Shown: piece after piece, positions 18,429 to 23,312 of the stretch
Position numbering within the stretch: the first letter of the stretch is position 1
How the letters are laid out: each line of letters begins with the position of its first letter
The notes under the pieces: model-generated
The model's database searches: none
Told to the model about the DNA's origin: nothing
What the model saw: the letters and a program-made list of their open reading frames with translations, nothing else
Program-made: the position numbers and the translations under genes
Origin: a virus
Taxonomy: Duplodnaviria > Heunggongvirae > Uroviricota > Caudoviricetes
Strand: one strand, 5' to 3'
IMG/VR virus record: IMGVR_UViG_2617270991_000003
DNA: 23,312 bases

Positions 18429-19478
18429 ATGCTTAATACTGTAAAAATATCCAGTTGTGAGTTAATCAACGCCGACTGCCTGGAATTTATCCGGTCGTTA
18501 CCCGAAAATTCTGTTGACCTGATAGTCACGGACCCGCCGTACTTTAAAGTGAAGACTGAGGGATGGGATAACCAGTGGAAGGGCGACGATGATTACCTGA
18601 AGTGGCTGGACCAGTGTCTGGCGCAGTTCTGGCGGGGGCTGAAACCTGTCGGAAGTCTTTACCTGTTCTGTGGTCATCGCCTGGCATCTGATATCGAAAT
18701 CATGATGCGTGAACGCTTCAGTGTGCTGAACCATATTATCTGGGCGAAGCCGTCCGGACGCTGGAACGGATGCAACAAGGAAAGCCTGCGGGCGTATTTC
18801 CCCGCCACAGAGCGCATTCTGTTCGCGGAACATTATCAGGGGCCGTATCGTCCGAAAGATGCCGGGTATGCGGCGAAGGGCAGTGCACTGAAACAGCATG
18901 TGATGGCCCCGCTGATTTCTTACTTTCGTGATGCGCGCGCGGCCCTGGGGATAACGGCAAAACAGATTGCAGATGCCACAGGAAAGAAAAACATGGTGTC
19001 GCACTGGTTCAGTGCCAGTCAGTGGCAGCTACCGAACGAAAGCGATTATCTGAAATTACAGTCGCTGTTTGCCCGGGTGGCAGAAGAGAAACATCAGCGC
19101 GGTGAACTGGAAAAGCCCCACCACCAGCTGGTGGATACGTATACGTCACTGAACCGGCAGTATGTGGAGCTGCAGAGTGAATATAAGCATCTGCGGCGGT
19201 ATTTTGGTGTGACGGCGCAGGTGCCGTACACGGATGTGTGGACACATAAACCGGTGCAGTTCTATCCCGGGAAACATCCGTGCGAAAAACCGGCAGAAAT
19301 GCTGCAGCAGATAATCAGCGCAAGCAGTCGTCCGGGTGACCTGGTTGCAGATTTTTTTATGGGCTCAGGTTCAACGGTAAAAGCTGCACTGGCGCTCGGG
19401 CGTCGTGCGATTGGCGTTGAACTGGAGACCGGACGTTTTGAGCAGACAGTCAGGGAAGTTCAGGATTTAATCGTTTGA
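18429..19478 (+). CDS. Orphan DNA methyltransferase (amino-methyltransferase, DPPY motif near N-terminus, FxGxG near C-terminus)
   Basis: Track ORF; IVTDPPYF catalytic motif and C-terminal FFMGSGST SAM-binding motif; no adjacent restriction endonuclease. Confidence 0.75.
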   Translation: MLNTVKISSCELINADCLEFIRSLPENSVDLIVTDPPYFKVKTEGWDNQWKGDDDYLKWLDQCLAQFWRGLKPVGSLYLFCGHRLASDIEIMMRERFSVLNHIIWAKPSGRWNGCNKESLRAYFPATERILFAEHYQGPYRPKDAGYAAKGSALKQHVMAPLISYFRDARAALGITAKQIADATGKKNMVSHWFSASQWQLPNESDYLKLQSLFARVAEEKHQRGELEKPHHQLVDTYTSLNRQYVELQSEYKHLRRYFGVTAQVPYTDVWTHKPVQFYPGKHPCEKPAEMLQQIISASSRPGDLVADFFMGSGSTVKAALALGRRAIGVELETGRFEQTVREVQDLIV

Positions 19479-19527
19479 AACGGATGAGATTGCAGAATTA
19501 ATTACGCACCATTATTATTCTGCTTCC

Positions 19528-19603
19528 GGCCCTTTAGCTCAGTGGTGAGAGCGAGCGACTCATAATCGCCAGGTCGCTGGTTCAAATCCAGCAAGGGCCA
19601 CCA
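19528..19603 (+). tRNA. tRNA with anticodon CAT (Met-type; in phage context probably tRNA-Ile2 read as AUA after lysidine modification)
   Basis: Hand-folded cloverleaf: acceptor GGCCCTT/AAGGGCC, D-arm GCTC..GAGC, anticodon loop CTCATAA, T-arm GCTGG-TTCAAAT-CCAGC, 3' CCA; 76 nt. Confidence 0.8.
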
Positions 19604-19610
19604 TCACATA

Positions 19611-19687
19611 CCGCCATTAGCTCATCGGGATAGAGCGCCAGCCTTCGAAGCTGGCTGCGCGGGGTTCAAGTCCCCGATGGCGGTCCA
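19611..19687 (+). tRNA. tRNA-Arg, anticodon TCG
   Basis: Hand-folded cloverleaf: acceptor CCGCCAT/ATGGCGG, D-arm GCTC..GAGC, anticodon stem CCAGC/GCTGG with loop CTTCGAA, T-arm CGGGG-TTCAAGT-CCCCG, 3' CCA; 77 nt. Confidence 0.7.
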
Positions 19688-19700
19688 TTATCTGCATCAT

Positions 19701-19745
19701 GCGTTGTTAGCTCAGCCGGACAGAGCAATTGCCTTCTAAGCAGCT
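19701..19745 (+). pseudogene. Truncated tRNA (5' half only: acceptor 5' strand, D-arm, anticodon arm with loop CTTCTAA, anticodon TCT = Arg)
   Basis: GCGTTGT-TA-GCTC-AGCCGGACA-GAGC then anticodon arm; no T-arm or matching acceptor 3' strand (ACAACGC) found downstream; followed by a G/T-rich tract. Confidence 0.4.
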
Positions 19746-20633: not shown

Positions 20634-20969
20634 TTATGGACTTTGTTGTTTTAGCCCATAAGGACATATTTGCAGAGTGCAACGGTTATTAAAGCATTCA
20701 TTCAATACGTTATCTGTATTTGTAGGGCATTCCTGGCTGTTTTTGATTAAATTCCATAATGTTTTATTGAATGGTACTACGTTGTAAATGGTTACAGGTA
20801 GCACTTTGTTATTGAGCATGATGCCTGTGTGAGTCAGTGTAAATATACTTTCAGGAGGTAAGAAAGCATCCGATTGATACCAGATTATTAATTTTATTTT
20901 ACTCCATATGACTGAAAAAGATATTCCGCATGATGGCTGGATAACTGTATCAATCACAATCCACTTCAT
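20634..20969 (-). CDS. Possible hypothetical protein (111 aa) on the minus strand within an AT-rich island
   Basis: Track ORF; AGGAAA 6 nt upstream of ATG 20969; unusual Trp/Cys/Ile-rich composition; could equally be a chance ORF in AT-rich DNA. Confidence 0.25.
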
Positions 20970-21229
20970 TTAGTTTCCTTGTTTATGCCTTGCTGGTGAT
21001 GTTCTGAAAAGTATAAATGATATTTTTGATTGTAAACCATAGAGCAGAATTATTTTTCTGATGTTGTTTATTGTTTATTTAAATGCAGGGTGGTTTATAT
21101 CTCGTCTTGTAGTTTATCCATGCATATCTGCTTGATGATGAGGTTTTTATTTAAGGTATGGTTTTGTGTTTTTTCTGTATTACATGTCAGGTATTTTAAA
21201 GAATCATTTTTCAGATGGTGGAAAGAACC

Positions 21230-23083
21230 ATGGTATTTAAACACTATGATGTTGTCAGGGCGGCGTCGCCGTCAGATCTTGCGGAAAAGCTGACACATAA
21301 ACTGAAAGAGGGCTGGCAGCCGTTTGGTAGTCCGGTGGCCATAACCCCTTATACCCTGATGCAGGCGATTGCAGCAGAAGGTGATGTGGTCGTCAGTGGT
21401 GCAACTGAGCCGGAGTGGTACTACGTCATCGTACTGGCCGGGCAATCCAATGCCATGGCTTACGGTGAAGGGCTTCCGCTTCCGGATTCTTACGATGCGC
21501 CCCACCCACGCATTAAGCAACTGGCCCGTCGCAACACAGTGACTCCCGGTGGTAAAGCATGCGCATTTAACGACATCATTCCGGCAGACCACTGCCTGCA
21601 TGATGTTCAGGATATGAGCGCACTGAATCATCCGAAGGCAGACCTGAGCAAAGGGCAGTACGGCTGTGTCGGCCAGGGCTTACATATTGCCAAAAAACTG
21701 CTTCCGTATATCCCGAATAACGCGGGGATCCTGCTGGTACCATGCTGTCGTGGTGGTTCGGCATTCACCCAGGGCGCGGAGGGGACATTCAGTGCGGACA
21801 CGGGGGCCAGCCAGGATTCGGCACGCTGGGGTGTGGGTAAACCGTTATATCAGGACCTGATCGCACGCACCAAAGCGGCATTACAGAAGAACCCGAAAAA
21901 TGTGTTGCTGGCGGTGTGCTGGATGCAGGGCGAATTTGACATGAGCGCTGCCACCTACGCACAGCAACCGGACCTGTTCACGGCCATGCTGAAGCAGTTC
22001 CGTACTGACCTTTCCGGATTTAACGCGCAGTGCCATGGCGGCAGTGCTGCAGTTGTACCGTGGATTTGTGGCGACACGACGTATTACTGGAAAAACACAT
22101 ACGGCACACAGTATGACTCCGTCTACGGCGCATACAAAAACAGGGAGAGCGACAACGTTTTCTTTGTGCCGTTCATGACCGACGGTAACGGCAACAACAC
22201 GCCCACCAACTTACCGGCAGAAGACCCGGATATTGCTGATGCAGGTTATTACGGCGCGCAATCCCGTAGTAATGGTAATTGGGTATCGTCAAACCGCCCG
22301 ACACATTTCAGTTCATGGGCGCGCAGGAGCATTATTCCGGATCGTATGGCAACCGCTATTCTGAACGCAGCCGGGCGCACCTCAGCCTTCATCAGTGGTA
22401 AGGCACCGGAAATCAAACCCTCGCCCGGCGTCGACACGCCATCGGGGCCGTCTGAAGATGCATCCGTACGCACAATCTCCCTGTTGCCGACAGCCGGAGA
22501 GGCTGCTGCGCAGGGCTGGACCATTAAGGACGGCGGAATTCAGTTGTCGGGTGGTGTATTTAAGATCACCAAGCAGAGCAATAAAACTTGGTCCCTGATG
22601 CATCCGGTGGATGACGCAGTCTCCCTGCTGACACGGGGTGGCAGACTGAGCTGTAAGTTTCGACTGTCAGGCGCACTGACCAACAACCAGTTCGGTCTGG
22701 GAATTTATCTGTATACCGATGTAGCGTTACCTGACGTCGTGGCGATGACCGGGACTGGTAACCCGTTCCTGATGTCGTTCTTCACCCAGACCACAGACGG
22801 CAAACTGAATCTGATGCATCACAAGAAAGCCGGAAACACAAAGTTGGGCGAGTTCGGGAATTACAGTAACGACTGGCAGACGCTGGAACTGGTGTTCACC
22901 GCCGGCAGTGCCACGGTTACTCCGAAACTGAATGGAGTGGCTGGCCCGGCATTCCAGGTCATAAAAGACAGTCTGACACTGGGGCTGAATGCGCTGACGC
23001 TGACGGATATTACCAAAAATGCAGCGTATGGCGTTGAGATAGAAAGTCTGGTGCTGGAGATAAATGCACCAGCATCATCATAA
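21230..23083 (+). CDS. Sialate O-acetylesterase, NanS-p-like (617 aa)
   Basis: GQSNAMAYG esterase motif and overall layout typical of the esterase found downstream of stx in Stx phages; ATG 21230 after GGTGGAAAG (track begins at ATG 21215 without an RBS). Confidence 0.75.
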   Translation: MVFKHYDVVRAASPSDLAEKLTHKLKEGWQPFGSPVAITPYTLMQAIAAEGDVVVSGATEPEWYYVIVLAGQSNAMAYGEGLPLPDSYDAPHPRIKQLARRNTVTPGGKACAFNDIIPADHCLHDVQDMSALNHPKADLSKGQYGCVGQGLHIAKKLLPYIPNNAGILLVPCCRGGSAFTQGAEGTFSADTGASQDSARWGVGKPLYQDLIARTKAALQKNPKNVLLAVCWMQGEFDMSAATYAQQPDLFTAMLKQFRTDLSGFNAQCHGGSAAVVPWICGDTTYYWKNTYGTQYDSVYGAYKNRESDNVFFVPFMTDGNGNNTPTNLPAEDPDIADAGYYGAQSRSNGNWVSSNRPTHFSSWARRSIIPDRMATAILNAAGRTSAFISGKAPEIKPSPGVDTPSGPSEDASVRTISLLPTAGEAAAQGWTIKDGGIQLSGGVFKITKQSNKTWSLMHPVDDAVSLLTRGGRLSCKFRLSGALTNNQFGLGIYLYTDVALPDVVAMTGTGNPFLMSFFTQTTDGKLNLMHHKKAGNTKLGEFGNYSNDWQTLELVFTAGSATVTPKLNGVAGPAFQVIKDSLTLGLNALTLTDITKNAAYGVEIESLVLEINAPASS

Positions 23084-23167
23084 AAAGTGAGCCAGTCAAA
23101 TGGAAGGTATCGTTAAACTCACCGGTAGTGTCAGTGGGTCGTCTGAGATGCCTGCATGAGTTATCAG

Positions 23168-23198
23168 AGCCATCAGTACTTAACTGGTGGCTTTTTTT
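23168..23198 (+). terminator. Rho-independent terminator after the esterase gene
   Basis: AGCCATCAG-TACTTAA-CTGGTGGCT hairpin (one G-U pair) followed by TTTTTTT. Confidence 0.55.
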
Positions 23199-23233
23199 AT
23201 TGTTGTCAGCTTCCGGATAACGGGAGACGGGGT

Positions 23234-23312
23234 ATGTACCAGATGGAAAAAATCACAACAGGTGTGTCATACACCACGTCAGCGGTGGGAACGGGCTACT
23301 GGTTCCTGCAGT
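23234..23312 (+). CDS. Holin (S-like), first 26 codons; gene continues beyond the window end
   Basis: MYQMEKITTGVSYTTSAVGTGYWFLQ matches my recollection of the Stx-phage class of holin N-terminus; GGGAGACGGGG RBS. Confidence 0.6.
   Translation, partial: MYQMEKITTGVSYTTSAVGTGYWFLQ

Follow-up and report, generated by a model that had tools for sequence, protein, structure and literature searches.

Several described prophages provide a frame of reference for the stretch of DNA considered here. In phage 933W, the reference for Stx2a, the late region reads Q, pR', the tRNA genes ileZ-argN-argO, a terminator, the Shiga toxin (Stx) genes stx2A and stx2B, the esterase, and the holin. In the Stx2a phage Stx2_EH1910 (LC567834; EH1910 below), the order is rusA, an antiterminator gene Q of the PF03589 type, a small open reading frame (ORF), a methyltransferase, three tRNAs, stx2A, stx2B, STnc100, an iraM-like gene on the opposite strand, the esterase, and the holin, and the Stx2c phage 1717 (NC_011357) has stx2cB, an IraM-like gene, and the esterase in the same order. 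The potB prophage of Escherichia coli CFT073 carries iraL, the product of which binds RssB and stabilizes sigma-S in logarithmic growth (Hryckowian et al. 2014, PMC4045071). Here, we compare these systems with the late region found in a viral sequence of 23,312 nucleotides (class Caudoviricetes; IMG/VR record IMGVR_UViG_2617270991_000003), the whole of which we call the window.

We read this region as belonging to an E. coli lambdoid prophage that lacks stx, in which it forms the promoter-proximal portion of the late operon, and we put the probability of this explanation, taken as a whole, at about 0.9. Its components follow one another in the order Q, methyltransferase, tRNAs (ileZ-type, argN, and a truncated argO), a DUF3927 ORF, three STnc100 units, iraL on the minus strand, nanS-p, and the holin and lysis genes. 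The identities of the parts are settled, at the level of homology, by curated models and by a characterized orthologue that is 99% identical. Annotations in RefSeq or Rfam already exist for every component, and the region is ordinary, with nothing novel in its arrangement.

A preliminary description, prepared from the sequence without database searches, had listed a methyltransferase, two tRNAs, a gene-poor plus-strand stretch, a NanS-p-like esterase, and the start of a holin, and had proposed a stx-negative relative of Stx phages; the parts do lie where it placed them, and its broad inference is right. Between the tRNAs and the esterase (19688-21214, 1527 bp), the ORF listing contains no large plus-strand ORF. 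This interval possesses direct repeats spaced by about 467 bp, a GC-rich hairpin that is present three times, and a segment at about 20600-21200 in which the GC content is 0.31-0.35, as compared with 0.49-0.58 in the flanks. The repeats and the AT-rich segment reported earlier are, therefore, genuine features of the DNA.

The absence of stx, which had also been claimed, held up in every search. A tblastn search with Stx1A/B and Stx2A/B against the whole window gave a best E-value of 0.28, outside the slot that is equivalent to stx, and the same search recovered the toxin genes of EH1910, which served as the positive control. A translated search with Stx2A/B under very permissive settings returned noise only, and a six-frame Pfam scan of 19688-21214 detected DUF3927 alone, with no RIP or SLT_beta domain. 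At the DNA level, the matches of the stx1 and stx2 operon regions to the window were limited to the STnc100 element and the terminator after argO. Neither stxA nor stxB, which together define a Stx-converting phage, is present in the window. The late-region synteny (Q, tRNAs, toxin position, esterase, and lysis genes) is that of Stx phages, with colinear blocks in the alignments with both 933W and EH1910, in agreement with the gene order that had been put forward.

The best match to the backbone is EH1910. The window is colinear with this phage over 16332-19742, at 93.4% identity by BLAST, a stretch that includes the block formed by rusA, Q, the methyltransferase, and the tRNAs, and colinearity resumes over 20432-22363, which aligns to EH1910 11599-13510 at 72.9% identity and extends through iraL into nanS-p. 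What lies between, window 19743-20431 (689 bp), faces 1452 bp of EH1910 containing the 3' half of argO and stx2AB. By this alignment, 19743-20431 is the stx-equivalent slot, and the cassette difference at the toxin position is real. The slot holds the DUF3927 ORF, STnc100 unit 1, and a degenerate unit 2, with only about the first 1.5 STnc100 units lying in the interval itself. EH1910 and 1717 differ in having stx2AB and an intact argO in place of DUF3927 and the 1.5 extra STnc100 units, and in an IraM-like protein that is only 70-74% identical to the IraL of the window.

Position 19742, inside argO, is identified by alignment as the left breakpoint of the slot, because homology to the Stx phages ends there. 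It corresponds to position 4337 of 933W (argO, 4296-4372) and to position 10146 of EH1910 (argO, 10105-10181), and the BLAST blocks against Stx phages stop at this point. The window retains the 5' 42 nt of this third tRNA as a remnant (19701-19742, plus strand), and ARAGORN found no third tRNA in the cluster.

According to the preliminary description, stxAB had been exchanged for non-coding cargo, the structured repeats and the AT-rich island together filling the toxin slot. The lack of stx and the real synteny with Stx phages agree with this proposal, and relative to EH1910, STnc100 unit 1, the degenerate unit, and DUF3927 do fall in the interval that replaces the 3' part of argO and stx2AB; to this extent, and for a segment of 689 bp, a cassette difference at the toxin slot stands. 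The repeats and the island as such, however, are neighbors of stx and not occupants of its place. STnc100 lies directly downstream of stxB in 933W (208 bits, Rfam), in EH1910, and, as a STnc100-like element, in the Stx1 phage YYZ-2008. An IraM-family gene is found between stx2B and the esterase in EH1910 (11810-12133) and in 1717 (4001-4324; both in the coordinates of the stretches compared), and among the 46 phage records that match the IraM family, at least 32 bear the name of a Stx2, Stx2a, or Stx2c phage. The AT-rich island encodes a characterized protein, and the colinearity with EH1910 from 20432 through iraL to nanS-p places it outside the exchanged interval. Because unit 3, iraL, and nanS-p are colinear with a Stx2a phage, they are not toxin replacements. 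Given that Stx phages holding stx, STnc100, and an IraM-family gene together contradict the idea of non-coding cargo, we consider it very unlikely. On these comparisons, STnc100 and the IraM-family gene are regular neighbors of stx rather than substitutes for it, and iraL occupies a separate, adjacent slot.

The window and 933W share the tRNA cluster (91% identical), a STnc100 element, a nanS-p homologue, and the holin region, whereas 933W has a Q of another type (the 144-158 aa class), only a remnant of the methyltransferase, and stx2AB. In the slot where the window has iraL, 933W carries the anti-sRNA AsxR, on the opposite strand after STnc100.

One origin to be considered is descent from a Stx phage, with stxAB lost through recombination between argO and the STnc100 of another prophage. 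The left breakpoint in argO (19742) and the right breakpoint in the conserved STnc100 core (20432) would suit such an event, as would the 93% identity of the upstream 3.4 kb to a Stx2a phage. The hairpin at 20329-20348 is 88% identical to the terminator after argO in 933W and also resembles that of phi296, and a 2026 preprint on the Pas small RNAs (sRNAs) mentions the possibility that prophages have lost stx repeatedly. The gain of stx by an ancestor of EH1910, however, fits the same data equally well; arrangements without stx are far commoner (1011 genomes) and come in several variants (CFT073, O18, and phi296); and no scar of stx remains. Descent by loss of stx is, in our estimation, possible but on the unlikely side.

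We now turn to the contents of the two slots. The structured repeats, regarded earlier as anonymous non-coding cargo, turned out to match the STnc100 family (Rfam RF02076, gathering score 47 bits). Unit 1 (19951-20144, plus strand) scores 138 bits and ends in an intrinsic terminator at 20116-20135 followed by a T-run, and unit 3 (20420-20608, plus strand) scores 132.5 bits and has its terminator at 20578-20599; both exceed the gathering score and can be assigned to STnc100. The degenerate, STnc100-like unit 2 (20180-20355, plus strand) scores 30 bits (E-value 1.3e-4 in a 751-nt search with permissive filters), which is under the gathering score and short of the threshold for STnc100. It aligns to the whole RF02076 model, with the closing stem, the internal hairpins, and the terminator (hairpin 20329-20348 followed by a T-run) all placed, and its long-range stem is maintained by compensatory change. 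Because the spacer at 20180-20355 is itself STnc100-like, the arrangement is better described as three units than as a duplication with a spacer; judged by the covariance model, three STnc100-type units, of which the central one is degenerate, follow each other head to tail and repeat every 230-240 bp or so.

Units 1 and 3 share 73% identity, and unit 3 is 97% identical to the single copy in CFT073. Their folds have z-scores of -2.6 (unit 1) and -3.0 (unit 3) relative to shuffled sequence. When aligned with the homologues from 933W, phi296, EH1910, and CFT073 (six sequences in all), they yield a common structure with six pairs in which both sides have changed.

Relatives of this RNA have been studied in Stx phages. 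The STnc100 copy of a Stx2 phage overlaps the Hfq-bound sRNA EcOnc27/sRNA103 (PMC12711010), and STnc100 downstream of stx2B has been detected by reverse transcription quantitative PCR and in vesicle RNA (PMC12370729, PMC12711010). The Pas sRNA preprint relates STnc100 to PasD and places it upstream of the esterase. The units of the window have in common with the STnc100, EcOnc27, and PasD-related sRNAs both the fold (an 8-bp closing stem, three hairpins, and a terminator) and the location upstream of a sialate esterase. The arrangement differs, in that the preprint describes multiple PasA and PasD copies in distal positions and the window has three units head to tail.

Could the interval between the tRNAs and iraL code for proteins instead of RNA? 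The candidates are ORFs of 89 aa (19904-20173), 55 aa (20148-20315), and 70 aa (20351-20563, minus strand). The 55-aa ORF, assigned to unit 2, matches PHROG 23557 over its full length (E-value 2.2e-45) and is annotated as a hypothetical protein in some phage records, and the NCBI annotation pipeline PGAP places a minus-strand pseudogene, marked as partial, within unit 3. Against this, none of the three ORFs has a match in Pfam or NCBIfam, and each one runs across a stretch matched by the STnc100 covariance model, in which compensatory changes preserve the helices. In strain O18, moreover, the 55-aa ORF has no start codon while the RNA-like features are retained, and in the window its AGGA abuts the ATG, which is poor spacing for a ribosome binding site. 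A protein-coding interval is, in view of this, highly improbable. We rejected the three ORFs as genes and regard them as likely artefacts overlying the RNA units, the sole support being a PHROG without assigned function for the 55-aa ORF.

The minus-strand ORF in the AT-rich segment, which had been called doubtful, is a solid gene. It is iraL (20634-20969, minus strand), predicted to encode an IraM-family RssB anti-adaptor of 111 aa; the product matches NCBIfam NF007393 ("anti-adapter protein IraM") with 162.4 bits against a cut-off of 121, over residues 1-110 of 111, which places it in the IraM family. It is identical to IraL of the CFT073 potB prophage at 110 of 111 residues (99%) and 63% identical to IraM of K-12. 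The upstream region is a near base-for-base match to that of CFT073, which extends the orthology to the promoter and the transcription start. The published 5' end of CFT073 iraL (PMC4045071) matches 31 of 32 nt at 20971-21002, which would put the transcription start at position 21002 of the window, with a TATACT hexamer 7 nt upstream of the equivalent position. We, therefore, mark 20970-21060 (minus strand) as the 5' untranslated region (20970-21002) and predicted promoter region of iraL. All statements on promoters in this work are based on this published start; a consensus sigma-70 scan gave no more matches than shuffled sequence and revealed no plus-strand promoter for STnc100 or for the late operon. 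By homology, the AT-rich island as a whole (about 20602-21228) is an iraL cassette that consists of the coding sequence, a 33-nt leader, the promoter, and an upstream region, and it lies antisense to the late operon.

The potB prophage of the uropathogenic strain CFT073 is among the closest known counterparts of this part of the window. It shares not only the near-identical IraL, the promoter, and the mapped 5' end, but also the neighborhood, namely a PF03589-type Q, a tRNA cluster, DUF3927, STnc100, iraL on the opposite strand, the start of the esterase, and a class II holin. The differences lie in the modules: in CFT073, all three tRNAs are intact, an IS200 follows Q, the methyltransferase is absent, STnc100 is present once, and the esterase is cut to a DUF1737 stub, whereas in the window the methyltransferase is complete, argO is truncated, there are three units of the STnc100 type, and the esterase is intact at 622 aa. 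IraM of K-12 (YcgW), encoded beside the e14 prophage, belongs to the same family, is likewise an RssB anti-adaptor, and has a phage-derived, AT-rich setting, but its genomic context is unlike that of iraL in the window.

Neither the cassettes nor their order are rare. Of 5426 complete E. coli genomes, 1011 contain at least 80% of the 1.8-kb segment 19478-21300, with an identity of 99.9% in many cases, and the tandem STnc100 junction occurs in 670 genomes, where it falls into two sequence classes. Several clinical and wastewater isolates carry, on the ompW side, a prophage to which the whole window is 99.7% identical. Variants reshuffle the modules: strain O18 has tandem STnc100 units and an intact argO without iraL; phi296 has the tRNAs, one STnc100 unit, and the esterase; and CFT073 combines a single STnc100 unit with iraL and a truncated esterase. 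In the near-identical genomes, the integrase of the prophage adjoins ompW, a site that is also used by some Stx2a prophages (e.g., record Stx2_12E129_PPompW).

Two small plus-strand features escaped the preliminary description, which had found no convincing gene in this stretch. One is the argO remnant described above; the other is a hydrophobic ORF of 38 aa with a GTG start (19746-19862, plus strand), which matches DUF3927 (Pfam PF13064) at 42.6 bits against a cut-off of 25 and PHROG 1470 with an E-value of 2.4e-13, and which PGAP/RefSeq annotates in near-identical genomes. A second, weak Pfam match (E-value 0.097) corresponds to the C-terminal end of the profile and falls in a different frame, which is why this allele may be frameshifted or shortened relative to the 43-aa version of CFT073. 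Upstream, ARAGORN identified two complete tRNAs on the plus strand: one with anticodon CAT (19528-19603; Rfam tRNA, 72.5 bits), which the program called Met and which is annotated as an ileZ-type tRNA-Ile in RefSeq and 933W, and an argN-type tRNA-Arg (TCG) at 19611-19687 (Rfam, 58.4 bits).

The genes on either side are those of a late region. The late antiterminator Q (17033-17854, plus strand, 273 aa) matches Pfam PF03589 (Antiterm) with an E-value of 2e-49, and RefSeq matches are annotated as "antitermination protein." A GC-rich hairpin with a T-run (17937-17952, plus strand) was found in the terminator scan, 83 nt past the stop codon of Q. By analogy with 933W, in which pR' and terminator features are annotated after Q, this hairpin probably serves as tR', ending a short transcript from pR' unless Q overrides it; the consensus scan found no plus-strand promoter near 17937-17952. 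The DNA N6/N4 methyltransferase (18429-19478, plus strand, 349 aa) matches Pfam PF01555 (N6_N4_Mtase) with an E-value of 4.6e-43, and its DNA is found at 93-95% identity in many Stx2 phages.

Downstream of iraL, the gene for a sialate O-acetylesterase of the NanS-p type (21215-23083, plus strand, 622 aa) encodes a DUF1737 N-terminus, a SASA catalytic domain, and a C-terminal DUF6645, all over the Pfam threshold, and the product matches PHROG 143 over its full length with 1143 bits; these domains assign it to NanS-p, and it is homologous to the esterase of 933W. The terminator scan also picked out a hairpin of 12 pairs with a T-run between the esterase stop and the holin start (23166-23194, plus strand), which has no match to any Rfam family. 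This hairpin occupies the position of PasA/PasC/AgvB-type sRNAs in other prophages. Rfam scans for AsxR, AgvB, and other known sRNAs found none between the esterase and the holin, nor in the place of iraL. The start of a class II holin (MYQMEK...; 23234-23312, plus strand), identified from its translation and from a "class II holin family protein" that RefSeq annotates in the corresponding place, is cut by the end of the window, and this region is 92% identical to the S region of 933W.

Two further observations concern other parts of the window. On the minus strand at 3148-3622, Rfam identifies C4 antisense RNA, isrK, and DicF in series, a dicB-type immunity and early-left region of the prophage. 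At 12713-12888, a sok antitoxin RNA (117 bits) adjoins a hokD-type toxin gene that is annotated in matching genomes.

From these parts, a working model of the region can be put together. Upon induction, RNA polymerase modified by Q would start at a late promoter just after Q, cross the hairpin at 17937-17952 and the STnc100 terminators, and reach nanS-p and the lysis genes. Expression of the small cassettes in the lysogen would be independent of the late operon, with iraL transcribed from its own promoter. IraL is predicted, from the 99%-identical protein of CFT073 (PMC4045071), to bind the adaptor RssB, with the result that sigma-S would not be delivered to ClpXP and growing cells would contain more RpoS; the STnc100 units would, if the literature on their relatives applies, give rise to Hfq-associated sRNAs. 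The cassettes themselves were presumably exchanged by recombination between related prophages; the location of both breakpoints within conserved RNA genes (argO and STnc100) is compatible with this.

Several points weigh against this account and should be kept in mind. The promoter scan did not locate the late promoter or read-through by Q, and both are proposed from lambdoid precedent. The comparisons do not tell the direction of change, that is, whether stx was lost or was never present. Unit 2, with a score under the Rfam gathering score, may no longer be a functional RNA but the decayed remains of one, and STnc100 has no established target or phenotype. Finally, the function of iraL is carried over from its CFT073 orthologue, and its expression in this strain is a prediction.

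As a finding, the region has little importance: iraL was characterized in 2014 in the same kind of prophage context, and the arrangement occurs in about one-fifth of complete E. coli genomes. It does clarify the map of the toxin neighborhood, in which stx occupies a narrow slot between the terminator after argO and STnc100, and the sRNA and the anti-adaptor gene are independent, adjacent cassettes that move both in the company of the toxin and in its absence. One might go further and view the interval between the tRNA cluster and nanS-p as a hot spot for cargo with two slots, for which argO and STnc100 would serve as recombination anchors. The first slot may hold stxAB, DUF3927, extra STnc100 units, or nothing, and the second an IraM-family anti-adaptor, AsxR, or nothing; the three-unit STnc100 array, likewise, could be an sRNA array that acts through dosage or diversifies targets, rather than recombination debris. 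Taken jointly, and together with the proposal on Stx2 lysogeny that follows, these proposals are tentative and rather doubtful. The sole thread with some freshness is that Stx2c phages and some Stx2a phages (1717, 2851, and EH1910) carry an IraM-family anti-adaptor gene next to stx2; a search of the literature for anti-adaptors encoded by Stx phages brought up no relevant work, and the papers covered include none on the subject. Through these genes, carriage of a Stx phage could be linked to RpoS-dependent stress resistance and, if this is true, Stx2 lysogeny itself could raise the stability of sigma-S and the stress tolerance of the host.

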